From IMG/VR virus record IMGVR_UViG_3300042874_000443, positions 64,001-128,000 of that record: a DNA stretch of 64,000 bases; one strand, given 5' to 3'. A program made the position numbers and the translations under genes. Origin of the DNA: a virus. The notes under the pieces are model-generated. The model was not told the origin of the DNA. It did no database searches and was given only the letters and a program-made list of their open reading frames with translations. Positions within the stretch are counted from its first letter, which is position 1, and the number at the start of each line of letters is the position of its first letter. Below are positions 1-58,182 of the stretch, piece after piece.

Positions 1-1226
1 GCGCCGGCGATGTCGTCGGCGACGTCATCGCGTCCCACGAGTTTCGAGGGTTCGATGTAGTCGCCGTTGTCGAACACGGCGAGGTAGGGCTTCGCGTTGT
101 AGCCGCGACGGATCGCGTAGTCCGCCTCATTGGGCCGACCTTGTGGATAGACCTTGATGGACCCGCGATGCTTCGGATCGTAGTACGAGTTCTCGACGAG
201 AGGGTTGTGGCCCGGGATCGCTGGACGGCGTCCGTAGCGCGTTCCTTCATCGAACAGGTCGATGGGGTTCGACATCACGAACGCGTGACGCTCTTTGCCG
301 TCGGACGCGTAGAGTGTGTAGCAGCCCGGCTGGTTGGGCTCGGTCCACCGCTCGTATGGCTGCTCTTGCACGGCCATGTTGCGATCGAGACGCTCGTCCT
401 TTGCTGCGAAGCCCTTCTTCCGGACGCCGGCGTATGCCTCTCCAGCCCTGTCGCCGAAGATGCGCTTGAAGTCGGTCGGCGTGTTGTCCGCGTCAGCGAT
501 CCAGAGGGCGCCGCCGTACTGCTGCTTCGCCGCGACTTTCTCGGCACGTAGCGCAAGCGCCGATGCAAGCGCCTTCACGCCGTACGTCGCCGCCGCTTGC
601 TTCATCAGGCGCGGATTCTTCTCGAGCAGCTTGGTGTACGCGACCTTCAGCTTGTTCGGTGCGGCCGCGAGGAGCGACGGCAGCATCGGTGCGTGGTCCT
701 CCGCCACCTTTTCGAGCGCCTGCGTGTTGATCACGCGTGCGACATCGAAGAGCGCCTTCGACACCCACGCGGCGTACGAGAAACGTCCGGTGATCGGCGG
801 CACGACGACGTTGCGGATGTCGACGTCGGTGTAGAGCGTCTCGGGGGTCTTGACGCCGGTCCCGAGCGACGAGAGTGCGTTCTTGTCGATCTCGTCGAGC
901 CACCCCTTGTTCAAGGGCAGGAAGACGTTCATCGCCTTGTGAAAGAACACCTCGAGCGGCTTGATGGCGTTGTCGACCATCACGACCGGGATGTAGATCG
1001 GCTGTCCGTGGTGCAGCACCACGAACGCACCGACGCCCGATCCCTTGTCGATGTCGACGTCGAGCACCTTGAACGTGACGACGTCCTGCAGCACGTCGGG
1101 CATGCGCGACGACAACAGGTTGTACGCCATTTCGGACATACCTTGCTCGAACAAGGCGGATTCTTGATCCGGGCCCGCACCCATTCCAGCTTGAAGCTGT
1201 TGCGTTCGGGGAGACATTGCCGGCAT
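1..1226 (-). CDS. Large hypothetical (putative head/virion) protein, N-terminal >408 aa, runs off left edge
   Basis: Not in ORF track. Manual translation from ATG at 1226 (overlapping the HNH stop) gives MPAMSPRTQQLQAGMG...TFKVLDVD...GVGAFVVLHHGQPIYIPVVMVDNAIKPLEVFF..., open to position 1. Contains EKVAE, LKVAY, MKQAAA, EKVAA. Confidence 0.8.
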   Translation of the reverse strand, partial: MPAMSPRTQQLQAGMGAGPDQESALFEQGMSEMAYNLLSSRMPDVLQDVVTFKVLDVDIDKGSGVGAFVVLHHGQPIYIPVVMVDNAIKPLEVFFHKAMNVFLPLNKGWLDEIDKNALSSLGTGVKTPETLYTDVDIRNVVVPPITGRFSYAAWVSKALFDVARVINTQALEKVAEDHAPMLPSLLAAAPNKLKVAYTKLLEKNPRLMKQAAATYGVKALASALALRAEKVAAKQQYGGALWIADADNTPTDFKRIFGDRAGEAYAGVRKKGFAAKDERLDRNMAVQEQPYERWTEPNQPGCYTLYASDGKERHAFVMSNPIDLFDEGTRYGRRPAIPGHNPLVENSYYDPKHRGSIKVYPQGRPNEADYAIRRGYNAKPYLAVFDNGDYIEPSKLVGRDDVADDIAG

Positions 1227-1705
1227 CAGTTGTTCCTCTCGTGCGGGCAGGTCCCGTACAGCCCCTTGGCCATGTTGCAGTTGTGGCAGAGCGTCCGAAA
1301 CCCAGACGGAAAACCGTTCGTGATCAACCAAGCATACAGGTTGGCGTTGTTGATCGTTTTGCGGTGTTGATTGCCCCCGCCATCAATGTGGTCGATGCAC
1401 AGAAACAAGAACTCGCGTTCGCCACAACACGCACAGCGGTCACCGTAGTGCTCGATCACTTGGCGGCGACGGTGTTCGTTCCGAATTTTGGCCGTGTCTG
1501 CGTACATGCGGAGGCATGAATCACAGAAACGTTTGGCTGTCGTCTTCTCTCCACCACATGCGCAGCAACGTCCGCTGTCCTCCAACACCTTTGCATGGTG
1601 ATTGTTTCGACAGCGTTCCGTACAGAAAACCTGCGTGCTTCGTCGTGGCGAGAACGACGTCTCGCAGCTTCGACACACGTTGGTGGTTGTTGCGGACGTT
1701 GACAT
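1226..1705 (-). CDS. Free-standing HNH endonuclease (Cys-rich)
   Basis: CACCGE...LCIDHIDGGG...TLCHNCNMAK pattern with N-terminal CxxC motifs; visibly more AT-rich than neighbours. Confidence 0.8.
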   Translation of the reverse strand: MSTSATTTNVCRSCETSFSPRRSTQVFCTERCRNNHHAKVLEDSGRCCACGGEKTTAKRFCDSCLRMYADTAKIRNEHRRRQVIEHYGDRCACCGEREFLFLCIDHIDGGGNQHRKTINNANLYAWLITNGFPSGFRTLCHNCNMAKGLYGTCPHERNN

Positions 1706-1731: not shown

Positions 1732-1902
1732 TCACGAAGAACTTGGGAACGATACGACTTTCGGAAGGTTTGCGTCGGGAAGGCCGCCCAGCTGCTTGGT
1801 CTTCTGTGCCTTGAGCGAGCCGAGCGTCGGGGTGATGATCTCGCCGAGCTTCGCTACGACGGCTCGAAGGCCCGCTTCGCGGATGTGACGCGGAAGGCTC
1901 AC
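1732..1902 (-). CDS. Small hypothetical protein (56 aa)
   Basis: GTG overlaps upstream TGA (GTGA); MSLPRHIREAGLRAVVAKLGEII...; weak match to the leader motif of neighbouring genes; below the track cutoff. Confidence 0.5.
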   Translation of the reverse strand: MSLPRHIREAGLRAVVAKLGEIITPTLGSLKAQKTKQLGGLPDANLPKVVSFPSSS

Positions 1903-3233
1903 GCGCGCTGCGCGGCGTCGATGCGACGGAACATGTCGCGGAGCGACGCCTCCTTCTTGTCGTCGTCCTTCTTCTCGTTCTTGTCGCCGCCGCCGTCCTT
2001 CTTGGCGTCGATCTTGTCTTGGATGAACGACGGGAGTCCGCCCTTGCTCTCGCCCTTGTCGTCGTCCTTCTTCTCGTCCTTCTTGTCGTCCTCCTTCTTC
2101 ATGAACGGCGGAAGGTCATCGGCCTGTTTGGTGCCCTGGTTGCCCGAGCGCCCGTCGTACGCACCGGGGCGCGAGTGCGTCGCCTCCGGGTTGTGCTCGT
2201 TGTAGTTGCTGCGCGAGCCGGGCGGCAGGTTCGCCGGCGCTGCTGCCGTGCGATCCGCTGCTTCCTTCTGCAGGCCGCGGAGGTAGTACGCCTTCTCCTC
2301 GGTGGTCAGGCCCATGCACGCGCGCACGGCCGCGATCTTGGCGTTCTCGTCGAGAGAGCCCGGCAGATACTCGTGCACCTCGGCCGCGACCTTCTTGAAG
2401 AGAGCGATGTACGGGTCTTCGGAAGCGGCCTTGCCCGAGTGCTCGGTGAGCGAGTTCGAACCGCCCGGCGTCTCGGCCGGCTTGTTCGGCTGCGGGGTCT
2501 CGCGACCGATCACGGCCGGACCCGTCACCTGCTTCATCATCTCGCCCAGGGCGCCCTGGTGCGGAAGAACGGCGTAGCCGGGCGGACGCTGCGAAGCGTC
2601 CATCTTCGCTTCGGCCGACGACATCTCCTTGTTGCCCTTGTCGCCGCCGAGGATGGTCGAACCCTCGGCCGACTTGCGGAAGAGGTCCGAGAGCGACGCG
2701 GTACGCGAGTGCTCCTGCACCGAGTTGTCCTTGGAGTCGGTCTCCTTCGGTTTGTTCGGCTGCTCTTCTTCCTTGCCGACCGCGCCCGGACGCGTGTCGA
2801 CATCGGTCTTGCCGAGGCTGTTCTCGGCGTAGCCCGGCGGACGCTGCGACGCGTCCATCTTGGTCTCACCCTGTGGCGATTCGCCTTCGGTGTTCCCCTT
2901 GTCGCCACCCTCGATGGTCGAGCCCTCGGCAGCCTTCGTCATGAGCTGCGTCGCGTTGTAGTCCGCGACCTTCATGACGTCGTCCCACGTCGCGAGCTTG
3001 TTCCACCCGGCAGCCTTGAAGCCCGGCTGCTTCTTGATCCAGTCCGAAGCGCTGACGAGGTCCGTCGCGATCTTGTGGGTCGTCTCGCGACCGACGCCCT
3101 TCAGCGGGTCGATGTCGACGCGCTCGGCGATGTAGTCCGCGACCTTCGCCGCAGTGGTCTCGTCAGGGAATGCGGCAATGCCGCCGTTGATTAACGCGGT
3201 CTGGATGCCTCGGACGTACGCGTGCTTGAACAT
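1899..3233 (-). CDS. Putative internal head/scaffold-like protein with two ~90-aa repeats (444 aa)
   Basis: Start reassigned to ATG 3233 (GAGGAG RBS); duplicated KxAEGSTIxGGDKGN...KMDASQRPPGYA...QPNKPxET...NSxxEHS block; many K-x-A motifs; charged tail. Confidence 0.7.
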   Translation of the reverse strand: MFKHAYVRGIQTALINGGIAAFPDETTAAKVADYIAERVDIDPLKGVGRETTHKIATDLVSASDWIKKQPGFKAAGWNKLATWDDVMKVADYNATQLMTKAAEGSTIEGGDKGNTEGESPQGETKMDASQRPPGYAENSLGKTDVDTRPGAVGKEEEQPNKPKETDSKDNSVQEHSRTASLSDLFRKSAEGSTILGGDKGNKEMSSAEAKMDASQRPPGYAVLPHQGALGEMMKQVTGPAVIGRETPQPNKPAETPGGSNSLTEHSGKAASEDPYIALFKKVAAEVHEYLPGSLDENAKIAAVRACMGLTTEEKAYYLRGLQKEAADRTAAAPANLPPGSRSNYNEHNPEATHSRPGAYDGRSGNQGTKQADDLPPFMKKEDDKKDEKKDDDKGESKGGLPSFIQDKIDAKKDGGGDKNEKKDDDKKEASLRDMFRRIDAAQRA

Positions 3234-3260
3234 GCAAGTCTCCTCGGGGGGAACGGTGGA

Positions 3261-3268
3261 ATGATAGG
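3261..3268 (-). promoter_or_regulatory. Variant of the CCTATAAT element (CCTATCAT)
   Basis: One mismatch to the motif; intergenic, upstream of RBS and ATG 3233. Confidence 0.4.
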
Positions 3269-3297
3269 ACGGGACGCTCAAATATCCAACGGTTGCA

Positions 3298-3510
3298 CTA
3301 ACCGAGTGCTTGGGCCTTCGAAGCGCCCGTCGCCATTGGTGGTGCGGATGAGGCTGGTGGAGCCATGGTCGATGCGGGCTGTGGTTGTGTTCCCACGGAA
3401 GCCTGCCCACCGAGCATGGGGTTGTAGCCGGCAGCGCCCTGCTGCATGTTGCCGAGCTTGAAGCGTGCGAACGCAGCAGCGCGTCCTCGGTTGTAGGCGT
3501 CGTTGATCAT
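3298..3510 (-). CDS. Small leader-motif protein (70 aa)
   Basis: MINDAYNRGRAAAFARFKLGN then Q/P/A/M-rich tail; ATGA overlap with upstream gene. Confidence 0.65.
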   Translation of the reverse strand: MINDAYNRGRAAAFARFKLGNMQQGAAGYNPMLGGQASVGTQPQPASTMAPPASSAPPMATGASKAQALG

Positions 3511-3965
3511 TGGAAGGGGTCCTGTGGTGGTTGTGGCGGTGGGGCGCTACCGAGTAGATGTCCGGCACCATGCCCGAGGCGGCCGCCGAGCGCAGCACCG
3601 AGAGGCATACCAAGCATGCCGCCCGCCATGCCGCCGTATGCACCGCCCGCGAGACGCCCAAGTGTTCCGAGCGCATGTGACGCGCGCCCTTCGTTCGGGT
3701 CTGGATTGGTTACCGCACGCATCGCCATCGGTACCATGGCGAGCGTTCCTGCACGACCAATCCAGTTACCGAACGTACCGTACTGTGATGGCCAGAACAC
3801 GTTCTTCCAATGCAACGCACCGCCTGGTGAGAATGCCTTGGGTCCTTGTACGAACGCACGACCTGCATCACCGATGAGCGACCGTTTGGCGAAGTCGACT
3901 ATCCCAGCCACCTTGAAGTGTGACAGGGCTGCGACTACGCCTTGTTCATGTGCCTTTGACAACAT
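3507..3965 (-). CDS. Leader-motif protein with glycine zipper (putative membrane-inserting virion protein)
   Basis: MLSKAHEQGVVAALSHFKVAG; C-terminal GxxxG repeats LGRLAGGAYGGMAGGMLGMPLGAALGGRLGHGAG. Confidence 0.7.
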   Translation of the reverse strand: MLSKAHEQGVVAALSHFKVAGIVDFAKRSLIGDAGRAFVQGPKAFSPGGALHWKNVFWPSQYGTFGNWIGRAGTLAMVPMAMRAVTNPDPNEGRASHALGTLGRLAGGAYGGMAGGMLGMPLGAALGGRLGHGAGHLLGSAPPPQPPQDPFQ

Positions 3966-5746
3966 CAGTACTGACCCTCTTCGCCAAGGCCAAATTCAGT
4001 GCCGGCAACATACGCTGGAACAGGTGACGCTCCATGCAGATTGGACACATCCCCTCGATGGATACCCGCCAGCAATGACTCTTTGAGATAGCGATGTGCG
4101 AGACGCGCCATCCAGTCAGGGTTGAGAAGAGGTGTGCGCGACGCTGGGCGCATCAACGGCGTGGCGCGTGGGCCATGCTCTGCAATCAACACGGACGTCA
4201 CACCGTTCCGGGTCAGTTGGTCCGCCATCGGTTGCGTCACAAGCGTGCCTGCCGTGTGGTGCAGTACATTGTCCGCTAACGTCTCGCCGACCGCGTCCGC
4301 CGTGGGGAGGCGCTTCTTGGAAGATGCGAGCGCAGCATGGAAGCGGTTGTAGTCGACGACGTCGCCCTTCAAGAACGCGTCGTGCGGCCCAGGGTCCACG
4401 ATCTGTACGTGGTTCAAGACCGACTTCGCAAGGGTCTCGAGGTGGCGCTTGTCGACCTCGGAGCCCGAGCGTTTGTAGACGTCAGACAACGCGTCGACGA
4501 GATAGCGACGTCCTTCACCGAGGCCCTTGTGCTGCACGACTTCATCGGGCTTGGGAACGCCATCGGAGAGCAGGTCGCCCGCGTACATCGACTGTCCGAC
4601 GTTCACGATGACCTTGTGTGTGGGTGCCACGTAGTGACTGCCGTCGTTGACGAAGACGTAGTGCCCACCTTGAGGCGCCTTGTCGATCTTGGTGATCGTA
4701 CCGTCTCGGTTCGCAAGGGTTGCCTTGTGTGCGAAGGCCGTCGGAATTTCGAGCAGAGACCGCACACCTTTGATGCCTTCGAGGCGTTTTTCATCGTCGA
4801 CACTGGCCACGCGTCCGCCGTGCTTGGCGTTCAGCGAGAACTGCGTCAAAGGCTCGGACAGCGCTTGCGCTGCACGCACTCCGACGTTCGTTCCGATCGA
4901 GTGCATCGCGCCCGAGGGGGACAAGCCCTGGCAGTGCTGACAAACACCGTGCGCGGCTTCGCACGTCATCGGTGACCGTACGACGACTTCTTTGCCCGTC
5001 TTAGCCAGGGTCGACGCGTACTGCGGCGTGATGAGTTTGTTCGTCTTTGCTTCGTAGCGGTCGATGATGTGCGCGTCCGTCGGAAGCATCGCCAGTCCGT
5101 TGTGCGTGCCGCAGTCGATCTTCGTGACGAGCTGATCCCCCATGTTGTTGACGAGGATCTTGGCGAGGTCGCCTGGTTCGACGACGGAGATGTTCGACAG
5201 CACGGCGTTGACGCGCGCTTCGCCCCCGGCGACCCATGCGTCAGCAGGCTTGAGGCCTTCGGAGAAACTGCGATCGATGAGCCACGGGACGATCTTGCCC
5301 TTGGAGTCGCGCGCGAAGACAGGCGCTCCGACTGTACGCATCAGCTGAGGTGCGTTGCCGCGTCCGCCCGACCGCACCATCTCGCCCATCGTGCCCGGGT
5401 GCTTTTTTGCGAGCGTGAGCATCGAGTCGAAAGCGCCGTTGAGCGCCTTGTCCTTGTCGACGGTGGTCGTCGCACGACGAAACGCTTCGACGTGCGGCTT
5501 CATGGCTGCATCGCGTGCCGCGGTGTGCGGTGCGATGTCGTCGAGCCCGACCGAGATGCCGTCGAGCGTTGCCGTCTCGTCGCCCAGGCGTTTGAGCTTG
5601 GTGACGATGTCGGGGTACTTGTGCGGGTCATCCTTGGCGATGCCGACAAGGGTCTCGTTCAACGATCCTTTGGTGAGCGCGCCACGCCCGCGCCACTTCG
5701 GTGGGAGGATCGAGTCGACGAGATGTTGGCCGAGCGTGGTGGCCAT
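3965..5746 (-). CDS. rpoC: DNA-directed RNA polymerase beta' subunit, C-terminal half (phage-encoded)
   Basis: Colinear with bacterial RpoC C-half: GISVGLDDI, MVRSGGRG, SFSEGL, DCGT, VRSPMTC...GVCQHCQG (Zn), trigger loop AAQALSEPLTQFSLNAKHGG, DKRHLE. Confidence 0.93.
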   Translation of the reverse strand: MATTLGQHLVDSILPPKWRGRGALTKGSLNETLVGIAKDDPHKYPDIVTKLKRLGDETATLDGISVGLDDIAPHTAARDAAMKPHVEAFRRATTTVDKDKALNGAFDSMLTLAKKHPGTMGEMVRSGGRGNAPQLMRTVGAPVFARDSKGKIVPWLIDRSFSEGLKPADAWVAGGEARVNAVLSNISVVEPGDLAKILVNNMGDQLVTKIDCGTHNGLAMLPTDAHIIDRYEAKTNKLITPQYASTLAKTGKEVVVRSPMTCEAAHGVCQHCQGLSPSGAMHSIGTNVGVRAAQALSEPLTQFSLNAKHGGRVASVDDEKRLEGIKGVRSLLEIPTAFAHKATLANRDGTITKIDKAPQGGHYVFVNDGSHYVAPTHKVIVNVGQSMYAGDLLSDGVPKPDEVVQHKGLGEGRRYLVDALSDVYKRSGSEVDKRHLETLAKSVLNHVQIVDPGPHDAFLKGDVVDYNRFHAALASSKKRLPTADAVGETLADNVLHHTAGTLVTQPMADQLTRNGVTSVLIAEHGPRATPLMRPASRTPLLNPDWMARLAHRYLKESLLAGIHRGDVSNLHGASPVPAYVAGTEFGLGEEGQY

Positions 5747-5747
5747 A

Positions 5748-6131
5748 TCACATCATGGGGTAGCCGCCGCCCGCGTTCATCATGGCGTGCTGGCGTGCCT
5801 GCTCTTCGCGCTTGGCCTGGTTGTGTCGGTGCAACATGTAGAGGCCGCCGCCGGCGAGTAGCGACGGTGCGAGCGTCTTGAGATTGCCGAGGGCGCCCGC
5901 ACGCGCGGCCGCACCAGCAGCAGCGTCTGGCGCTCCGCCGAGGCCTTGGTGCAGGTTGCCGAGTAGGCTCTTGCCCGCCTCGAGCTGACCCGACCCGAAC
6001 GCCTTGGCCCGATCCATGAGGCCAGCACCGGCCGCTGGCGCTGCTCCCATACCTGGAAGTGGGAGCTGGTTGGCGATCTTGAAACGCGCGAGCGCGTCGA
6101 AGTGTCCTTGGGCAACGTAGCGGTCGAGCAT
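5748..6131 (-). CDS. Small leader-motif protein with hydrophobic Gly-rich segment (127 aa)
   Basis: Start reassigned to ATG 6131 (TGATG overlap); MLDRYVAQGHFDALARFKIAN; LAPSLLAGGGLYML. Confidence 0.7.
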   Translation of the reverse strand: MLDRYVAQGHFDALARFKIANQLPLPGMGAAPAAGAGLMDRAKAFGSGQLEAGKSLLGNLHQGLGGAPDAAAGAAARAGALGNLKTLAPSLLAGGGLYMLHRHNQAKREEQARQHAMMNAGGGYPMM

Positions 6132-6607
6132 CAGACGCCTCCGAAACTGGTGTTCTGTCCCATATCGCTGAGCCGGTTGGCGGCATCGCCGCCGGCAAGG
6201 TTCGACGGCGCACCCCACGACGTGTTGCGGTCGAGAGGGTCACGCGCTGCGAGCTGATCGGCGGGCGCCATCGGAGCGTCGATCTCCTTGAGCAGATCGG
6301 CGAGGCTGTCCGCTGTTTCTTCGTTCGCGCGTTTGGCGTTTCGATCTGCTTCAGCCTTATGGGCTGCGTCGAAGCCGTGGAATGTGCGGCTCGGAATCTT
6401 CAGGCGCAGTTCCTCGGCGGCTTGCTTGAAACCGAATCGCTCGAGAGCATCGACGATGCCGAGTAGGTGCGACTTCTTCACGTGCTGCGGCAACTTCTTA
6501 CCCTTGGGAGTGGCGTCCTCCCACTCCTTGACGGTCTTGGAGCTGATCTCGCCGCGGTCTGCCATGGCGTAGAACTTCCCCCGTTGCGCTTGGGACTTGA
6601 AGGGCAC
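6131..6607 (-). CDS. Hypothetical phage protein with internal copy of the leader motif
   Basis: N-terminus MPFKSQAQRGKFYAM; internal SHLLGIVDALERFGFKQAA; preceded by CCTATAAT. Confidence 0.7.
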   Translation of the reverse strand: MPFKSQAQRGKFYAMADRGEISSKTVKEWEDATPKGKKLPQHVKKSHLLGIVDALERFGFKQAAEELRLKIPSRTFHGFDAAHKAEADRNAKRANEETADSLADLLKEIDAPMAPADQLAARDPLDRNTSWGAPSNLAGGDAANRLSDMGQNTSFGGV

Positions 6608-6612
6608 GCTCT

Positions 6613-6620
6613 ATTATAGG
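6613..6620 (-). promoter_or_regulatory. CCTATAAT promoter-like element
   Basis: Exact motif 5 nt before GTG 6607; overlaps the RNAP stop codon. Confidence 0.55.
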
Positions 6621-9600
6621 CGCGAGCCTTTGATTTCGATGGGATCGTTGAGCGCGATCTCGCCCCGGTGATAGGCAGCCATCGCTTCTTCCTGGGACTC
6701 GAAGTGCTTTGTTTTCTTGCTGGCGGGGGCCTGCGTCGCTCGATGGAGCCCGAGCAGGCTCTCCATCTCGGGCACGATGTTCAAGACGCCCGGACGCTTG
6801 TCCGCAAAGATCATGTGGGACAGCGTCATTTTCTTCACGTCTTCGATGCCGGCCGGCGTGACGGGCGCGTGGATCTGCATTGCGTCACCGTCGTAGTCCG
6901 CGTTGGTCCCCTTCTCCGCGAAGGGGTTGAGCTTGAGGGTCTTGCCTTCCACGATCTTCGGGTACGCACCGATGATGTTGAAGCGATGTAGCGACGGCGC
7001 CCGATTCACCATCACCGGCCGCTCCCGGGATTCGTTGACCAGCTCCTCGCGTGCGATGGGCTTGCGGTCGTCGACCATCTTCTGCGCGTCGGTTGCGGTG
7101 TACCCGCGACGCACGAGGCGTCCGATCACGAACTTACCGTACATCCCCCAGAGCATTCCTTCGGGCACGCCGATCTCATCCATCGACAACGTCGGATCTG
7201 GCGCGATCGTCGCGCGCCCGCTGACGTCCTGTTGGCGCTTCATCAAACGCGATTGGAAGAAGCCGCTGCCCGGACGTGTGCCGGTGATCGCCGCGAGGTA
7301 TCCCTTCGCCCCGCGCTTCTCGGCACCAGGGCTGACAGGGTCACCGACGCCGTAGAGCGCGCTCACCGCGTCGTAGAGATGTTGGCGTGGCGCCGGATGT
7401 TCGGCGGAGGGCAAGCTCTTCGTCGCGTCCTTGAGCTGGTTGTTGGCGAGGAACGCATCCTTATAGAGAAGGTTCGCGTCGCTGACCTGCAGGCGCCCAT
7501 CCTTGAGCGGCAAGATGGGACGGATGATCGGCGGCGTGACGGGAACCTTCGTGATGACGTAGGCGTCCGCTGGTTTGAGGTTCTTCTCCTTGAGCGCCTC
7601 GAGATACTTGATCTGCTTCACTACGCCGTCGAGCGTGGGGCCGCGGGCCTTCTTCGACTGCGTGTGCAGATCCTTCAGCTTGTCGTCGACGTTGATCTCG
7701 CCGAGCGCCGACTTGAACCACGCACCGCCCTTACCGACGTGTGTCGTGAACTCCTTCTGTGTGAGGCCAAGGAGACGGCGGACAGGTTCTTCGAACACTG
7801 GGTTGACGATCGGTTCGTGAAGGTCGACGTGTGTCCACTTCGTGCCTGACATACCGCCCGTCATGCCGGGGTCGAAGAGCCCTCCGACTTCGGGACGCAG
7901 GTCCTTTGCACGGATCAGACGGCTGGGGTCCTTGAGCGCGCCTGACGACATCGACTTCACGTCGGCGTCCGTGAGGGGGCCGAGCGAGAGACGCGAGCCC
8001 GCCTTCGACACTTTCACACCAGCGCCGGTGAGCATGCTCTGCAGCTTCTCGTAGGCGAACGGAGTTTTGGGTGCAGGCGTCGGCAACCCGAGCTGCACCG
8101 CACGCCAGAACTCGTCGTTGCGTTGGCTCTTGATGGACGCAGCTTCACGCAGCACGTTGCGCGCGTTGTGCGCGACGAGCCCATCGAATTCCATCTTGCC
8201 GATGCCCTTGGCGCCCTCATCACCACCGCGCGCGGGCTGCTGGTTGTAGTCGTACCGCTCGGCGCCGTGCGCCGCCCAGTTCGAGTCCGTCGTCTTGAAG
8301 AGCTTGAGGATGTAGCTCTTGCCGACGACGACGTTGGGGATCTTCTTGCCGGTGATCGGGTCGAGCACGGTCTCTTTGTCGGAGAGGCCGTGTTCGTCGA
8401 GCAGCTTCTTTGCGAAGGCGACGTTGTCGCGGCCCGGCGTGTATTGCGGAACGACGATAGGCTTCCCGATCTTCTCTGCGACTTTGCCCAGCGCCGTCTC
8501 GACGATCTGTGCGGGGTTGATGCGCGAGACGACACCCGCGGACGTGAACAACAGATCGATCGGACGTCCTTGCGCGTCATGCACCATCTGGTGGTCGGGG
8601 ACGATCTTCGCGATGACGCCCTTGTTGCCGAATCGGTTGGAGAGCTTGTCTCCGATCTGCAGTGCTTCTTGTGTTCGAACCGACGCAGCTGCGTGCTTCG
8701 CTGTTTTCGCGATGTCGATGACAGTGCCCGGTCGGTCGTGGTCCCACGTCGCGATGACTTCTTCGTAGGGTTTGATGAGCGCCTTGGACAGCTTGCCGAG
8801 AAGCGCGGCGTCGCCCGTCGCCTTGTTTTCTCGAACGCCCACGATGATCGGGTCGCCCGGATGAAGCGTCACACCGTGCTTGACCACGCCGTCGTCGTCG
8901 AGCTTGTCGTACTGCTCCTTCGTGTACCGACTGCCGAAGTACGATCGATGACGCTCACGTCCGAGCTGCGTGTCGCCCTCACGTGACACCGCGTGCTGGT
9001 ACATGTGCTCGCTCGTCAGCTTGTCCGCCGCGCCTTGCGAAACGACGATACCGTCGTTGGTGTTGAGGCCGCGGTACGGCATGTACGCCACGCTCAAGTT
9101 CGTGCCGAGCGCGAGCGCCCCGCCCTTGGTGAAGTTGCTCTCGGCGAGCGGCTGGTTCTTCTTGACGGTATCGCCCACCTTCACGGTCAGCGTGTTGTGC
9201 AGCGCTGTCTTGGCTGCTAGCGGGAAGTCCTGATCGTAGTGGTGGCGCGAGTTTTCGGCTCCCGTCTTTGCGTGGTGCCCGACGTGGATGTAGTCGCCGT
9301 CGATCTTCGTGATGACGCCGTCGTGACGCGCAGTCGGCACGAGCAACTGCACCATGTCCTGTTCGACGGACGAACCGGGGTTCCATGATGCGACCTGAAC
9401 CAGTGGCGCTTCGCGATGGGTGAGCGGTAGCGCCTGTCCTTGATGCTTGCTCGCCATCAGCACACGGTTGCCCTGGATGCCGTAGACGAAGGGCAACAGG
9501 TTTGACGTCGGTCCGTACTGGTCAGCAACGTGTTCGATCTGATGTGTCACCTTGTCCGCAGACACGCGCGACACCACCCCGTGCGCCATCGCATCGACCA

Positions 9601-10975
9601 TCTTGCCGGGCTTCACGACTTCGCCGGGGAAGGCGATGACCGACGCAGCCATGTCGCCCGCCTTGAGGTAGGTCGGACGTCCCGTCTTCACGTCGATGAC
9701 GGGGGCGTAGAGGTTGCCCTTGTCGTCACGGCGCGCGCCGATCGCTGCGCGTAGGTCGACACCGATCTTGAAGCTCTCAGGACTGCGCGCGGGGTCGAGG
9801 ATGCCCAGGTGCGTCGGGTGAACATCGCGAGCCTCGAGCGGGATGGCGCGGTCGGATGCGATGGCTCCTTCGCCGAGCATTGTGACGCGCGACGCTTCGT
9901 CGAGCAGTTCCATTGGATTGATCTGCATCGGGACCGCGCTGAGGGAACTGCCTGTGAGCAGTCCATGCATCGAGCGCGTGAAGGGGCCCGCAGGCAACGC
10001 CTTCTTGATGTCGCCGTGGCTGGCGTCCAGTTTCCAGCCCAGCTTGGCTTTCATCGCGCGCGCCTCGAGCGCAACACGTTCCTTGACGAAGTCGTCCACC
10101 GAGTGGAACGTCTTGAACGCGAGCGAATCTCGGTCGTCGACGTCCGCAGCTGTCTTGTGTACGTCGAGCAGCTTCTTGGACGCAGCAAGGATGGCAGCGG
10201 GCGACGCCTTCTCGTAGGGGTACCCGAGCGTGTGGTGCGTGACCGCGGGGTCCATCGAGGTGTTGTCGAAGTACTCACGCAACACACGCGACTTCTCGTC
10301 CGTCGTTGTCGCGGTTTGCTTGGCTGGATGCACCAGCGTTTCGTACAGCTTGTCGACGTGCTTGTCGGGGTTCTTCCACGCGTCTCGATTCATCGACGCG
10401 ATCTCGGGGCCCCAGTTCGTTGCGATGTCTTGGTGCGGGATACCGAGCGCACGCAAGACAGGGTGCAGTGGGATCTTCGATGTTGTGTGCGACGGTTGCA
10501 TGTAAAGGAGCCCCTTCTCGGGGTCCATCGACATGCGAAAGTTCGCGCCCTTCGCTAGGTTGAACGTTGCCTCCAGTTCTTCATTGCCGCGCCGACGGAT
10601 GTACGCACCCGGTTTGGTACGAATCTGGTTGGAGACTGAGTACTCCGTCCCATCGAGAATGAACGTGTGTCGAGGCGTGAAGTACGGCAACTGAAGAAGC
10701 GTGAAGTCTTTGGCGTGGTTGACGGTGCTGCCGCTTGCGTCCTTGACCGTCAGGTCTCCACGTACCCGCTCCGCGAGCGTCTTGCCCTCGAGCACCGCGT
10801 GTTTCTGTTCACGCGACGAGAACTCTTTGGGTTCGACACGGACGTTCGTCAGCTCGAGGGTGTGCTTGCCCGCCTTGAGCGGGAACGCTTGCTCGAGGCC
10901 TTCGACGACCTTCTTGCGGATCATCTCGCGACGCGTGGCCGCGTCTTCGAGAACGGGTCGTAGATTCGGCAGCAT
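6614..10975 (-). CDS. rpoBC: Fused RNA polymerase beta + beta' N-terminal half (catalytic subunit)
   Basis: Beta motifs RDVHPTH, GDKLSNRFGNKGVI, SRINPAQ, QQPARGG...GKMEFDGL; then beta' motifs GGLFD, VPVTPPIIRP, DVSGRATI, NRAPSLHR and catalytic NADYDGD (6884-6904). Confidence 0.95.
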   Translation of the reverse strand: MLPNLRPVLEDAATRREMIRKKVVEGLEQAFPLKAGKHTLELTNVRVEPKEFSSREQKHAVLEGKTLAERVRGDLTVKDASGSTVNHAKDFTLLQLPYFTPRHTFILDGTEYSVSNQIRTKPGAYIRRRGNEELEATFNLAKGANFRMSMDPEKGLLYMQPSHTTSKIPLHPVLRALGIPHQDIATNWGPEIASMNRDAWKNPDKHVDKLYETLVHPAKQTATTTDEKSRVLREYFDNTSMDPAVTHHTLGYPYEKASPAAILAASKKLLDVHKTAADVDDRDSLAFKTFHSVDDFVKERVALEARAMKAKLGWKLDASHGDIKKALPAGPFTRSMHGLLTGSSLSAVPMQINPMELLDEASRVTMLGEGAIASDRAIPLEARDVHPTHLGILDPARSPESFKIGVDLRAAIGARRDDKGNLYAPVIDVKTGRPTYLKAGDMAASVIAFPGEVVKPGKMVDAMAHGVVSRVSADKVTHQIEHVADQYGPTSNLLPFVYGIQGNRVLMASKHQGQALPLTHREAPLVQVASWNPGSSVEQDMVQLLVPTARHDGVITKIDGDYIHVGHHAKTGAENSRHHYDQDFPLAAKTALHNTLTVKVGDTVKKNQPLAESNFTKGGALALGTNLSVAYMPYRGLNTNDGIVVSQGAADKLTSEHMYQHAVSREGDTQLGRERHRSYFGSRYTKEQYDKLDDDGVVKHGVTLHPGDPIIVGVRENKATGDAALLGKLSKALIKPYEEVIATWDHDRPGTVIDIAKTAKHAAASVRTQEALQIGDKLSNRFGNKGVIAKIVPDHQMVHDAQGRPIDLLFTSAGVVSRINPAQIVETALGKVAEKIGKPIVVPQYTPGRDNVAFAKKLLDEHGLSDKETVLDPITGKKIPNVVVGKSYILKLFKTTDSNWAAHGAERYDYNQQPARGGDEGAKGIGKMEFDGLVAHNARNVLREAASIKSQRNDEFWRAVQLGLPTPAPKTPFAYEKLQSMLTGAGVKVSKAGSRLSLGPLTDADVKSMSSGALKDPSRLIRAKDLRPEVGGLFDPGMTGGMSGTKWTHVDLHEPIVNPVFEEPVRRLLGLTQKEFTTHVGKGGAWFKSALGEINVDDKLKDLHTQSKKARGPTLDGVVKQIKYLEALKEKNLKPADAYVITKVPVTPPIIRPILPLKDGRLQVSDANLLYKDAFLANNQLKDATKSLPSAEHPAPRQHLYDAVSALYGVGDPVSPGAEKRGAKGYLAAITGTRPGSGFFQSRLMKRQQDVSGRATIAPDPTLSMDEIGVPEGMLWGMYGKFVIGRLVRRGYTATDAQKMVDDRKPIAREELVNESRERPVMVNRAPSLHRFNIIGAYPKIVEGKTLKLNPFAEKGTNADYDGDAMQIHAPVTPAGIEDVKKMTLSHMIFADKRPGVLNIVPEMESLLGLHRATQAPASKKTKHFESQEEAMAAYHRGEIALNDPIEIKGSRL

Positions 10976-11381: not shown

Positions 11382-13184
11382 TCAACCTACCGCCGGAGGT
11401 CCAGCGGGGGGCGCACCGCCCGTACCACCAGACGGGTCGCCGCCCTGGCGCGACATCGCGATGGCCTGCTGATTCATCTGCGTGGTCTGGTCGTGCAGAC
11501 GTTCCTTCACGACGGCGTACATCACCATGTCTTCGGTCTGCAACGCGTGCATCTGCGACTGGCGCGTGCCGGGGTCGAGGCCCATCAGCTGTTGAACAAG
11601 CTGGTCTGCCTGCGCGATGACAGCCTGCTGGTCGTACGACAACCCTTGCTGCCCCATCTGCGCTTGCGCGCGTGCGCGAGCGCCCAGATCGTTCTGGCGT
11701 TTCTGCATCTCGATCTGCAGCTCTTGCGCGACGCGCGCGTCGTCGAGCGCTTCCTGCATGCGCCACTTCCGCTCGTCGGAGGGGTCGATGTTGAACGTCT
11801 CGCCCATCGTTCGCTTGGAGATCCAGGGTCCTGTCGTTGGGTCTGCGCCGTTGAGCTGGAGGAGCAGCGCCTTCTGTTGCACGTCGTCGATGAAGCGGAA
11901 GGGCGCGAGCGTGACCACGACGGTGCCGCGTCCGAGTTGTTTGGCGGCCTTGTCCGTGACCCACTGCAGGAGGTCGTTGAGGTCACCCGTCTGATGGACG
12001 AGCTGGTTCTCGAGCACACGGAGCTGGATGCCTGAGCCCATCGCCGAGAAGCCGCCGTAGATGAACTCCTTGGGTAGCCCCATCGCCGCGATGATGTTGT
12101 CCTCGGCCGCCTGGACTTCGCCGAGCGTCATGAGCGCGCGGGCCTGACCGCCGAGGTGCGTGACCTCCGCAGGGACTGGCGACCACATGATGTGCAGCGG
12201 GTCGCGGCGCCACTTCTTGACGCTGCTCTTCATCTCGTCTGACCACTTCGCCAGCGAGATCGTCGTCATCGGGTCGGCGTTCGCCGTCGACTGCTTCGGC
12301 GAGATGATGCGCAGCGGGACGATGTAGTCGAGCGCGATCGCTTCGTTCGCCTTGCGGAGCACCGCTGCGTAGAAGAACAGCTTGATCGTCGACGCCAGCG
12401 GCGGAAAGCCCCACTGGGCCTCGATGCCCGCAGGTGCGTCCATGCGCATGTGGAAGACCTGACCCTCGGCGAACTTGAAGATCTTGTCTTCGCGGATCGC
12501 TTCCAAGAACTCCATCGGCATCGTGTCGATGAGGTGCTTGTTCCCCTTGGCGCAGCGTTCCTTAATCTCCTTGGGGATCGTGTAGTAGTACTCGCTGTGC
12601 CCGGTGATGGGGTTGTAGTCGATGTCCATCAACTTCGGGTCCCAGCGGATCACCGAGATGCGGTCCTTGCGCGTGATCTTGCGGTCGACGATGTTCTTCG
12701 CACCGACGTCGACGCGCGTCTTGCAGCCACTGCACTCGTAGTTGAAGGCCAGCTTCTTGAGTTTGAACTTGTAGGTGATCTGCTGGATGTTCGTCAGCGT
12801 CTGGCAACGCGGGCACTTCAGGAAGCGCACGAACGGCGAGTACATCGAGAAGAACGCGTTGCCGTAGACGAACTTGTCAACGGCCGCACGGATCAAGATG
12901 CGCTTGGTCTTGAGCGTCTTGTTGTGGAGGTCCTCGTAGTATTCCTTGAGCGCTTCGTTCTGCGTCTCGTAGACGATGTCCGTGACGGGGTACGTGCAGA
13001 ACTTCTGCAGCGCCGCGTAGATCTGCGAGCTGTTGAAGTAGAGGTATTCGCAGAGGCGGAAGAGGTCCTTCAGCTTCCGGGGCGCGAACGCCGTGAGGAA
13101 GTCGAAGAGCGGGCTGCCGTGCGAAGACACGTTGTGCGTCGCGAGATCAGCGACCCCGGGGTCGAACATTCCATCAGCGGCCAT
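11382..13184 (-). CDS. Portal protein (with Zn-ribbon insertion)
   Basis: FVYGNAF, WGFPPL, IIAAMGLPKEFIYGG are portal-like; CPRC...CSGC insertion; Q/M-rich tail; GAGG RBS. Confidence 0.75.
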   Translation of the reverse strand: MAADGMFDPGVADLATHNVSSHGSPLFDFLTAFAPRKLKDLFRLCEYLYFNSSQIYAALQKFCTYPVTDIVYETQNEALKEYYEDLHNKTLKTKRILIRAAVDKFVYGNAFFSMYSPFVRFLKCPRCQTLTNIQQITYKFKLKKLAFNYECSGCKTRVDVGAKNIVDRKITRKDRISVIRWDPKLMDIDYNPITGHSEYYYTIPKEIKERCAKGNKHLIDTMPMEFLEAIREDKIFKFAEGQVFHMRMDAPAGIEAQWGFPPLASTIKLFFYAAVLRKANEAIALDYIVPLRIISPKQSTANADPMTTISLAKWSDEMKSSVKKWRRDPLHIMWSPVPAEVTHLGGQARALMTLGEVQAAEDNIIAAMGLPKEFIYGGFSAMGSGIQLRVLENQLVHQTGDLNDLLQWVTDKAAKQLGRGTVVVTLAPFRFIDDVQQKALLLQLNGADPTTGPWISKRTMGETFNIDPSDERKWRMQEALDDARVAQELQIEMQKRQNDLGARARAQAQMGQQGLSYDQQAVIAQADQLVQQLMGLDPGTRQSQMHALQTEDMVMYAVVKERLHDQTTQMNQQAIAMSRQGGDPSGGTGGAPPAGPPAVG

Positions 13185-33214: not shown

Positions 33215-34204
33215 CTACCGCATCTGCGCCGACAACATGCGCTGCATGTCGACGGGCAAGGTCTCGAGCACCTGCGCGAGACGCATCGGGTCCATGTGGC
33301 CGGTAGCGTCGGACGCTTCGCGGACGATGTCGGAGCCGAGGATGTCGGAGTAGAACGTCGAGGGGTACGACGCGACGCGTTCGATCGGCATGAAGCGACC
33401 GGCGAGTGTGACGCCCTGACCCGCGACCTTGTTCGAGTTGAACACCGTCATCAGCGGGTCGGGCAGCTTGCGGTCGTAGTAGCGGTCGAGACCGGCCAGC
33501 GTGTCCATCTCGCCGATCGCTTCGGCGAGCTTGATCTGTTGCGCGCGGTCGCGCATTTCGGCAGGCAGTTTCTTCGCTGCGTTGGCGAGCTTCTGGTAGC
33601 CGTCCTTGTGTTCGATGGGCGCAGCTTCGCGCCGGGCTTCGAGCCAGTCGACCAGGGGCTGTCGCTCGGTGACGGTCATGCCCGCCATCTTGCGGATCTC
33701 GTCGCGCACGCCGACACCGAAGAACGCGGCCTTCTCGACAAGACGTCGGCTCGCCAGAGCGCGATGCGGGATCGAGAGCTTCTGTCCTTCGGTGCGCAGC
33801 TTCTCTTCTGCTTCCTTGACGTGTCCCGCTTCGGTGACGCGAAGACGGCGGATGTCGGGGAGCAGAAAGTGGTCCGCGGGCTCGGGCGCCGCAGCAACCT
33901 TCGTTCGAGCAAAGAGGCTGTCGTCGATGCCGTAGACCTCACACGCTTCCTTGATGACGCGTGTCGCGTGCGCAGGGAAGTTCGGGATGCCTTCGCTGTA
34001 GATGCGAGAGAGCATCGCGTGCTCACGCGAATGGATGGGGAAGGCGCGCTTCTCCGACCATGCGAATGCCGTGTTCGGGAGCTTGTCGTACTCCTCACGG
34101 TTCACATCAATGTCCTGGATCGCCGCAGCGAGCTTGGGACGATCAGAAACACGGCGCACGAGATGCGCCATCACCGGGTCAGAAAACTGGTCCACAACGG
34201 CCAT
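33215..34204 (-). CDS. Hypothetical (putative head-associated) protein with K-x-A motifs
   Basis: RTKVAAA, NKVAG, EKAA; CCTATAAT 6 nt before ATG. Confidence 0.75.
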   Translation of the reverse strand: MAVVDQFSDPVMAHLVRRVSDRPKLAAAIQDIDVNREEYDKLPNTAFAWSEKRAFPIHSREHAMLSRIYSEGIPNFPAHATRVIKEACEVYGIDDSLFARTKVAAAPEPADHFLLPDIRRLRVTEAGHVKEAEEKLRTEGQKLSIPHRALASRRLVEKAAFFGVGVRDEIRKMAGMTVTERQPLVDWLEARREAAPIEHKDGYQKLANAAKKLPAEMRDRAQQIKLAEAIGEMDTLAGLDRYYDRKLPDPLMTVFNSNKVAGQGVTLAGRFMPIERVASYPSTFYSDILGSDIVREASDATGHMDPMRLAQVLETLPVDMQRMLSAQMR

Positions 34205-56366: not shown

Positions 56367-57206
56367 CTATTCCTGAACTTCGATCCACGAGGCTAGGTAG
56401 ATCGATCCCGACGGGGCAAAGCCTACGTCGGTCGTATAGAGCGCTCGAATCAGGTCACCTGCTACGTAGGTATCGATGCCGGCAGCTTGTGTTGCGAAAC
56501 CGCCCTCTTGGTTCGAGCCTGACGTGTGTACGACGATCAATGTGCCAGGGATGCCATTGATTGCGATCTGCGCGGTGAGCGTTCCGCCGGTGACACCTGG
56601 GCCACCTGGTTCAGTGATTGTCGAGAGTCCAACGATGGACCCCGGACGTGTAGCGCGGAACTCACTTGTATTGGGTAGGCCTGTTCCCATCGGAGTGTTG
56701 GGGAAGCTGGGAGCGAGCGTTGCATTCGAACGCCATTGCGGAGGCAGCATGTGCCGTGAAGTTGGCGCTGCTCCGTTCGATGCTGCTGTGATGCGTCCCT
56801 GCGCGTCGACGGTCAGGTTGACGTTGGTGTACGAGCCCGGCGTCACCGTGGTGTTTGCGAGCGCGATCGAACCGCTCCCCGTGATGGGTCCGCCGATGAG
56901 GCCGACACCGGTACCCACCGACGTGACCGTGCCACCGCCCAGCGGTGTGTTGTTGTGCATCCACGTGTCGTCGTTGCGAAGCCACACGTAGTCCGCGACA
57001 CCTGCAGGCGCGGGATCCACCGCGAGTGGCGTCATGCCCATCCACGCCGCGCCACGGGCCCACCCTTGAATGTCGAGCAACGCCTGGCAGAGTGTGATCC
57101 ACTCGGACGCAACACCCCACTGCACGGGGTTGGCGCCTGGCGGCAACGGCGCCGCGTTCATCTTGTTGATAGGAACGGTCGTGTTGTTGTAGATGAAGTT
57201 GGTCAT
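56367..57206 (-). CDS. Putative fibre/structural protein
   Basis: GTVTSVGTG...GGPITGSG...GSYT...TVDAQGRITAASNG fibre-type segment. Confidence 0.7.
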   Translation of the reverse strand: MTNFIYNNTTVPINKMNAAPLPPGANPVQWGVASEWITLCQALLDIQGWARGAAWMGMTPLAVDPAPAGVADYVWLRNDDTWMHNNTPLGGGTVTSVGTGVGLIGGPITGSGSIALANTTVTPGSYTNVNLTVDAQGRITAASNGAAPTSRHMLPPQWRSNATLAPSFPNTPMGTGLPNTSEFRATRPGSIVGLSTITEPGGPGVTGGTLTAQIAINGIPGTLIVVHTSGSNQEGGFATQAAGIDTYVAGDLIRALYTTDVGFAPSGSIYLASWIEVQE

Positions 57207-58180
57207 GGCGGACTCGGGGGTGTGGGCGGGTTCGGGTCGATCGTACCCTTGATGTTGCTCGTGGCAGGTGGACCAGTGAGAAACACAGCGGCCGCTGCTA
57301 CCAGTTGCTGTGCGGCGTTGAGGACACCGTTTACAACAGACGTCGGTTGCTCCGTACCTGCAACCGACACACTCGCCGGCGTTGGTGGAACAACCGCCGT
57401 TGCAATCACCGACGTTGAGGCTGCGGTGTTGACGGGTTGCAGGGCTGCGATCGCAGCATCCGCAGACAGTTTGACGTACTGGTCGACCGTCACTTTGTTG
57501 AACGCGATGTTCTGAAGAATCACGTACTCCTTGACGAGGAAGGAGAACGAGAAGGGCACCGCAAGCTCGTTGTCTGCGTTGAGCTGCTGCTGCTGCGAGA
57601 TCAACACCCCTGAAACGATCACGGAATCGTAGCGAAGACGTGCAAGGGCACCGCGTCGCGCGAGCTGTGTGCCGCGAAGCATCAGCTGGTAGGCCTTCGC
57701 GAAGCCGGACCGTTGGTCGTCCTGCATCGAGTTGAGTAACATGCCCGAGTACTGGAACGTCGGGGGCGACTGTCCGTAGAAGAAGGCGACATAGTCGTCT
57801 GCTAAGACTTTGTCGACCTGCATGATCTCTTGGAACGTCTCGTTGGCCGACGACAGAAAGAAGTCGATGAAGCCGGTGCCACCAGTTGCGTTGGTTCCGA
57901 GGAGCACTTTGGCCAACGACTGCGTCGCGTCGTCACCAGGGAGTGTCGCGAGGTACTTCGATCGATCGGTGTCGCTCAGGTCTGCGACGGAGATGTAGAG
58001 GCGTGCAAGCGTGTCGCGAAACTCGGCGTCACGCGGGCTGAACTTCGCGTACTTCGGCGACATCAGCGGGTTCGTTGCGAACACGCCCGACTGCCGTGGG
58101 TTGTACTTCGCCGACACGCCGTTGGCGGTCACGAAGGGGACGTTGAAGGAGCCGCCGGATTTATCGTATGGGCCGGGCAT
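57203..58180 (-). CDS. Putative tail tube initiator/distal tail protein
   Basis: Immediately after tape measure; FFYGQSPPTFQYSGMLLN...LRGT; start reassigned to ATG 58180 (GAGG RBS). Confidence 0.6.
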   Translation of the reverse strand: MPGPYDKSGGSFNVPFVTANGVSAKYNPRQSGVFATNPLMSPKYAKFSPRDAEFRDTLARLYISVADLSDTDRSKYLATLPGDDATQSLAKVLLGTNATGGTGFIDFFLSSANETFQEIMQVDKVLADDYVAFFYGQSPPTFQYSGMLLNSMQDDQRSGFAKAYQLMLRGTQLARRGALARLRYDSVIVSGVLISQQQQLNADNELAVPFSFSFLVKEYVILQNIAFNKVTVDQYVKLSADAAIAALQPVNTAASTSVIATAVVPPTPASVSVAGTEQPTSVVNGVLNAAQQLVAAAAVFLTGPPATSNIKGTIDPNPPTPPSPP

Positions 58181-58182
58181 CG

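Follow-up and report, generated by a model that had tools for sequence, protein, structure and literature searches.

The stretch of DNA considered here (the window: 64,000 nucleotides, bases 64001-128000 of IMG/VR record IMGVR_UViG_3300042874_000443, a phage contig of 157,408 bp and about 61% G+C) holds part of a set of late genes whose products, about a dozen small proteins, carry the same 20-residue leader. It is probable that the machinery of head assembly and maturation reads this leader as a common N-terminal signal; with more modest confidence, we favour the narrower reading that it is a two-part cleaved head-targeting propeptide, in which a docking helix is followed by a protease site and which would be removed once it had brought its varied small proteins into the prohead. 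The initial annotation of the window had recognised a leader motif ending F-K-[LIV]-[AG] and had proposed a capsid-targeting propeptide. The propeptide part of that proposal is now supported indirectly, as the leader ends in Lys-x-Ala/Gly/Ser, K-x-A is enriched in the head modules of three phages and a head protease is present, while the capsid-targeting part is suggested by analogy with phage T4.

Gene calling on the whole contig yielded 233 genes, and the leader occurs only in the late block, a run of 52 genes (g074-g125, genome 33969-77184) that lie on the minus strand throughout and encode, among others, a tail sheath, a gp5-like spike, a portal homologue (window 11382-13184) and a major capsid protein (genome 53735-54670) with 41.6% identity to gp226 of Salmonella phage Arash. 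The closest cultured relatives are Arash and the Vibrio phages D69, D148 and D181, with a polymerase identity of about 35%. The leader set comprises 11 N-terminal copies and one internal copy, which are held in three tandem clusters. Six of the N-terminal copies lie upstream of the window, in g075-g076 (genome 35.4-36.3 kb) and g094-g097 (50.5-52.2 kb), and weaker internal look-alikes are found in g090 and g109.

A chance origin of the leader is ruled out by the frequency of its strict pattern, G-x3-A-[LF]-x2-F-K-[LIV]-[AG]: there are three instances, against an expectation of 0.003 over all six reading frames of the 157-kb contig, and each of them lies 8-9 residues past a start codon. The copies align without gaps. 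With a profile built from 12 seeds, every copy scores an expect value (E) below 1e-4 and the next six-frame match lies at about 0.8; with a profile built only from the leaders of related phages, 11 of the 12 copies are the top 11 matches (E 3e-7 to 0.018), and the next match comes only at 0.44. A profile scan of the full genome and its relatives had been recommended in the initial annotation, and it confirmed the leader set and showed it to be larger than first listed. The six peptides listed originally all stand where they had been placed, on the minus strand; five of them are solid, and the copy at 1902 is weak and doubtful. In window coordinates, these are:

3903-3965, minus strand: leader, residues 1-21 of a 152-residue protein (3507-3965), ending F-K-V-A; relatives-only profile E 7e-6.
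3448-3510, minus strand: leader of a 70-residue protein (3298-3510), ending F-K-L-G; relatives-only profile E 3e-7, the best match.
6069-6131, minus strand: leader of a 127-residue protein (5748-6131), ending F-K-I-A; in both profiles, with orthologues found in relatives.
3171-3233, minus strand: leader variant of a 444-residue protein (1899-3233), without F-K; relatives-only profile E 3e-5.
6419-6484, minus strand: internal leader, residues 42-63 of a 158-residue protein (6131-6607), ending K-Q-A; E 4e-5.
1732-1902, minus strand: 56-residue protein; its N-terminus, which ends K-L-G, is a weak and doubtful likeness of the leader.

The 1902 copy scores only when it is among the profile seeds, and it was recovered neither in the leave-one-out analysis nor by the relatives-only profile; its orthologue in relative G003 has K-L-A in the same position. 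In the 444-residue protein the earliest K-x-A stands at residues 30-32. Ahead of the internal leader, residues 1-40 of the 158-residue protein form an N-terminal module starting M-P-F-K-S-Q-A-Q-R, which also occurs in some relatives. A separate observation concerns g074 (genome 33969-35456, minus strand; 495 residues), the last gene of the late block. The N-terminus of its product resembles a degenerate leader; the protein also contains F-K-I-A at an internal site and G-A-G-K-T, which is similar to a Walker A motif, and it matched no family.

Relatives were collected by a scan with the C-terminal beta-prime chain of the phage RNA polymerase, which returned 22 viral contigs at 46-85% identity. 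In close relatives the leader is kept at the N-termini of positional orthologues. Whole-record searches recovered 8-12 copies from three of these relatives, against 5 from a relative at 53% identity and 1 from a relative at 50% (relatives G001-G004 have 5-12 copies each, nearly all of them N-terminal). Orthologues of the 70-residue protein end their leader in Gly, Ala or Ser, and those of the 152-residue protein keep both the leader and a K-x-A/S site, the latter with a register shift of two residues. In G003, the orthologue of the 158-residue protein is missing its first ~40 residues, and its leader is hence N-terminal. In one locus of G002 (L031, around position 12960) the leader of the g097 orthologue lies inside an open frame of 454 residues with no start codon nearby; either a non-standard start or fusion to the head gene upstream may account for this.

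What is conserved is the peptide. The invariant leader Gly is encoded by GGC, GGA and GGT, the invariant Ala is likewise written with several codons, and the least conserved codon positions in the leader are third positions; this variety and divergence point to selection on the peptide, rather than to a nucleic-acid element or recent gene conversion, and a DNA or RNA element in place of a peptide is ruled out on the same grounds. A consensus of the leader reads M-L-x2-A-Y-x2-G-x3-A-L-x-R-F-K-[LIV]-A, and 62 non-redundant leaders give M-[LI]-x2-A-[YH]-x2-G-x2-[DA]-A-L-x-[RK]-[FL]-[KG]-[LIV]-[AGK], with Gly9 invariant. By simple arithmetic on the alignment, the four-residue spacing of Ala5, Gly9, Ala13 and Phe17 would put them on one face of a helix, and an AlphaFold2 (AF2) model of the 152-residue protein has residues 2-15 as helix and F-K-V-A as coil, at a predicted local distance difference test score (pLDDT) of about 41-45 in that part.

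The end of the leader matches a signal that is enriched in head-module proteins. After removal of the leaders, all 400 one-spaced residue pairs were scored against protein-specific composition, and in the head-module proteins K-x-A ranks 1 of 400 (103 observed against 46.3 expected, z 8.3), the runner-up pair reaching 4.6. It ranks 164 outside the late block (187 against 183) and 226 among those late-block proteins that do not belong to the head-module set. An unbiased ranking of single proteins by K-x-A places eight of the top nine in the late block, including the protease described below, the 444-residue leader protein and g107 (genome 56179-56763), a scaffold-like, Ala/Glu/Lys-rich protein with 12 K-x-A sites in 194 residues. 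The same pair again ranks first in the syntenic head modules of D181 (z 6.4) and Arash (z 5.5), which were picked by position alone, and ranks 74 and 271 in the controls; at the sites of both phages the next residue is mostly Ser or Ala. Among the 62 non-redundant leaders, 51 have K-x-[AGS] with the Lys at positions 16-24, 35 of these being K-x-A, and across orthologues the last residue of the leader site is Ala, Gly or Ser. On these statistics Lys-x-Ala is the putative cut site of a head protease.

Two further ideas were considered and set aside. Processing of the phage RNA polymerase at K-x-A is not supported, as its chains, with 14 sites in 1453 residues and 1 in 593 residues, are not visibly dense in such sites and neither is among the most enriched proteins. 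Peptide coverage figures published for Arash proved uninformative as a test of cleavage, since for many proteins a coverage of 100% is stated on the strength of two unique peptides only. Outside the late block, g147 (window 33215-34204, minus strand; 329 residues) has the strongest Lys-x-Ala excess in the genome, with 10 sites against 2.2 expected; it matched no known family and may be another protease substrate or a packaged protein encoded elsewhere.

A protease that could act on such sites is encoded in the late block, upstream of the window:

Genome 56822-58564, minus-strand late block: head-maturation protease g108, 580 residues, matching phrog_18299 (E 2.3e-7) over residues 107-207.

It is homologous to Arash gp222, and neither a Pfam match nor a PDB sequence match was found for it. 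The top structural match of an AF2 model of residues 1-340 (mediocre, pLDDT 60) is T4 gp21 (Z 6.1, 129 residues, root-mean-square deviation 4.7). Herpesvirus proteases, the next of the viral enzymes, reach Z 4-4.6, and unrelated MCE domains at 4-5.3 fall in between them; this is supportive, though not conclusive, of a fold of the T4 gp21/herpes assemblin type. In 21 homologues K-x-A is invariant at residues 37-39 and 242-244, both in low-confidence linkers that flank the modelled domain, and further sites are located in the C-terminal tail. Some metagenomic homologues of ~945 residues (P0011, P0016, P0024 and others; about one in eight of those listed) also contain intein/Hint and LAGLIDADG domains, from which the protease gene appears to be a recurrent intein target in this lineage.

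The proteins behind the leader are diverse. No pair of post-leader parts aligns better than E 0.1 in BLASTP, so that at this level the initial description of otherwise unrelated sequences after the motif holds; very old paralogy is possible, because most of these cargo parts are Gly/Ala/Pro-rich. They are mostly small, and several (that of the 152-residue protein among them) carry a glycine zipper at the C-terminal end. Pfam and PHROG searches of the leader-bearing proteins gave no family, except for a marginal match of the N-terminal module of the 158-residue protein to a PHROG virion structural protein (E 0.003). The 444-residue protein contains two repeats of ~85 residues, each bounded by K-x-A, has 15 K-x-A sites in all and ends in a highly charged Lys/Asp/Glu tail; from its sequence it looks like a polyprotein that would be cut into pieces. 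A tblastn search with it against 50,697 phage records gave nothing even at E 10, and no cultured phage with the leader was found. In more distant relatives the leader stands on about a dozen proteins that match no predicted protein of the contig under study (G000), and the leader cargo of relatives includes a kinase-like domain (weak homology) and a protein of 464 residues. The best sign of modularity comes from a leader-bearing protein of 282 residues in G004, which is homologous to residues 243-392 of the leaderless g031 (E 5e-9) and indicates that one domain carries different tags in different phages. The g031 protein itself (genome 9525-11039, plus strand) has two H-x-T motifs, as in 2H phosphoesterases, followed by Lys-x-Ala junctions and then by the domain shared with G004.

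The leader genes of the window are interleaved with those of the phage RNA polymerase, which in this contig has a two-chain layout:

Window 3965-5746, minus strand: C-terminal beta-prime chain of the phage RNA polymerase (Pfam RNA_pol_Rpb1_5, E 3e-19), without a leader.
Window 6614-10975, minus strand: RNA polymerase chain, a fusion of beta and the N-terminal portion of beta-prime (with the Pfam domains Rpb2_6 and Rpb1_2), without a leader.

The second of these has 35% identity to Arash gp206, the polymerase beta chain that tops the spectra among all proteins in Arash virion preparations, in which gp216, the homologue of the C-terminal beta-prime chain, is also abundant (PMC10585845). Between the gene of a 972-residue head-module protein and the leader-gene cluster lies an HNH endonuclease gene (window 1226-1705, minus strand; PHROG 1271, E 9e-9), which is probably a homing endonuclease. 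In the annotation of Vibrio phage D181, a homing endonuclease gene (0266) separates two coding sequences, CDS 0263 and CDS 0267, which are both pieces of the RNA polymerase beta gene.

Under the reading that we favour, residues 2-16 or so of the leader would form a helix with the conserved Ala5, Gly9, Ala13/Leu14 and Phe17 on one face, a stripe of small residues that would be suited to packing against a common partner, and a Lys-x-(Ala>Gly,Ser) site would follow. During head assembly the helix would dock each protein inside the prohead on a receptor common to all of them, for instance the scaffold, the inner face of the shell or the tail of the protease, which is scaffold-like. The gp21/assemblin-type protease g108 would then cut at Lys-x-Ala and so remove the leader; the cargo would stay in the head until it left with the DNA, probably in company with the virion RNA polymerase. 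What the data show directly is the leader with its conservation as a peptide, its confinement to the late block, the diversity of its cargo, the excess of Lys-x-Ala and a protease gene, whereas the cut, the docking, the packaging and the ejection are inferences.

Several observations weigh against a cleaved head-targeting propeptide. The internal leader of the 158-residue protein has no cut site ahead of it, and three leaders of this genome end K-L-G in spite of the depletion of K-x-G in head proteins outside the leaders. The fold match of the protease is weak, and the AF2 models are of low confidence overall (pLDDT 54-60). The leader profile found no copies in either Arash or D181, which have head module, protease and K-x-A signal in common with this phage and yet lack the leader, so that it is not needed for building a head or for carrying a polymerase; since these cultured relatives lack it, the Arash virion proteome cannot test it either. 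A leader of their own was not apparent by eye in the N-termini of the syntenic small proteins of Arash and D181, where no systematic search was made. The tandem arrangement of the genes fits diverged paralogues equally well, and between close orthologues the leader is conserved no better than the cargo.

The last two points are also what recommends the idea that the leader-bearing proteins are a diverged paralogue family, produced by tandem duplication of one small protein, of which the N-terminal helix is the only part still recognisable and has no targeting role (it might serve, for example, oligomerisation or a membrane surface in glycine-zipper proteins). The glycine zippers of several cargo proteins agree with this, and Gly/Ala/Pro-rich cargo of low complexity could have lost visible homology; we nevertheless consider it unlikely, as the leader also stands on long proteins of ordinary composition (the 444-residue protein here, the kinase-like domain and the 464-residue protein in relatives) and is nearly always exactly N-terminal and followed by K-x-A/G/S, which would be unexpected for a generic structural helix. 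A rather improbable alternative is that the helix is a protease-recognition element only, an exosite that presents Lys-x-Ala, with entry into the head (or action elsewhere) achieved by other means. The tight coupling of helix and cut motif would be explained in this way, and the early K-x-A in many helix-less head proteins implies that head entry does not generally need the helix; on the other hand, hundreds of K-x-A sites in scaffold-like proteins without the helix imply that the protease does not need it either, and in known systems the protease works inside the prohead, where its substrates must already be. Finally, with five copies between or beside the two polymerase genes, the helix could be imagined to dock small factors onto the phage RNA polymerase, but six other copies lie 14-34 kb away, adjoining tail, head and lysis genes, and the same polymerase occurs in Arash and D181 without any leader, which makes this explanation very improbable.

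Returning to the cleaved head-targeting propeptide, a bolder version of it can be formulated, which is slightly more doubtful than probable: the leader would be a transferable head-loading tag whose Gly/Ala stripe docks on a specific prohead receptor in a large, unstudied lineage of phages that package their RNA polymerase in the virion, a tag which is clipped under a previously undescribed Lys-x-Ala rule, and by which a changeable set of membrane-active and enzymatic proteins is delivered into the host together with the polymerase. No paper describing the leader or the Lys-x-Ala rule was found, although no literature search was aimed at either. If confirmed, the leader would provide the T4 capsid-targeting principle with a second example, unrelated in sequence, in a large lineage of phages known almost only from metagenomes, and the virion-delivered proteins of these phages could be read directly from sequence. 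It would also reveal a new head-protease specificity, apparently common to the cultured phages Arash, D69, D148 and D181, which could serve to test it, and so compact a tag could load foreign proteins into capsids. As the principle is already known, the advance would be incremental rather than categorical.

The closest known parallel is the capsid-targeting sequence (CTS) of T4, which is carried by the internal proteins IPI-III and Alt and is removed by the prohead protease gp21 (Mullaney and Black 1996, as cited in PMC10052503). Like the CTS, the leader is a short N-terminal peptide on otherwise unrelated, clustered late proteins and ends in a motif that is (here putatively) a head-protease site; the protease appears to be of the same broad kind, and the cargo in relatives may include enzyme-like domains. 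The two peptides show no sequence similarity. The leader has about 20 residues with a Gly/Ala stripe, compared to about 10 in T4, and the putative cut rule is Lys-x-Ala instead of Leu/Ile-x-Glu, the leader consensus having no Glu-terminated motif.

N-terminal propeptides cut by a prohead protease are also known from head proteins of giant phages, such as SPN3US (gp245, motif A-x-E), phiKZ and 201phi2-1 (PMC10052503). On some substrates these are short, with 20-24 residues, similar to the leader described here. The heads of these giant phages contain a virion RNA polymerase and many internal and ejection proteins, and the cut motif is repeated in scaffold-like regions, features with which this phage would agree. 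Their propeptides, in contrast, are not reported to share one conserved leader and are cut after Glu, and the phage studied here is smaller and has a two-chain polymerase.

A cut after Ala has its counterpart in herpesvirus assemblin, whose R and M sites include YLQA-T and VQA-S in pseudorabies virus (PMC4498786). The predicted cut in this phage would likewise fall after Ala, with Ser or Ala next, and g108 resembles assemblin in its layout, with the protease domain ahead of a long tail and conserved sites placed where the domain ends and close to the C-terminus; as the fold match is weak (Z 4-4.6), this may be a resemblance and nothing closer. Unlike assemblin, the putative rule here requires a Lys two residues before the Ala, and no targeting leader is known for assemblin substrates. 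Encapsulin cargo-loading peptides offer a last comparison, in that a short terminal tag on unrelated cargo docks inside an HK97-fold shell. The leader is likewise a short terminal tag on unrelated cargo, for which docking to the shell is a proposal, whereas in encapsulins the tag is unrelated in sequence, usually stands at the C-terminus and stays uncleaved.

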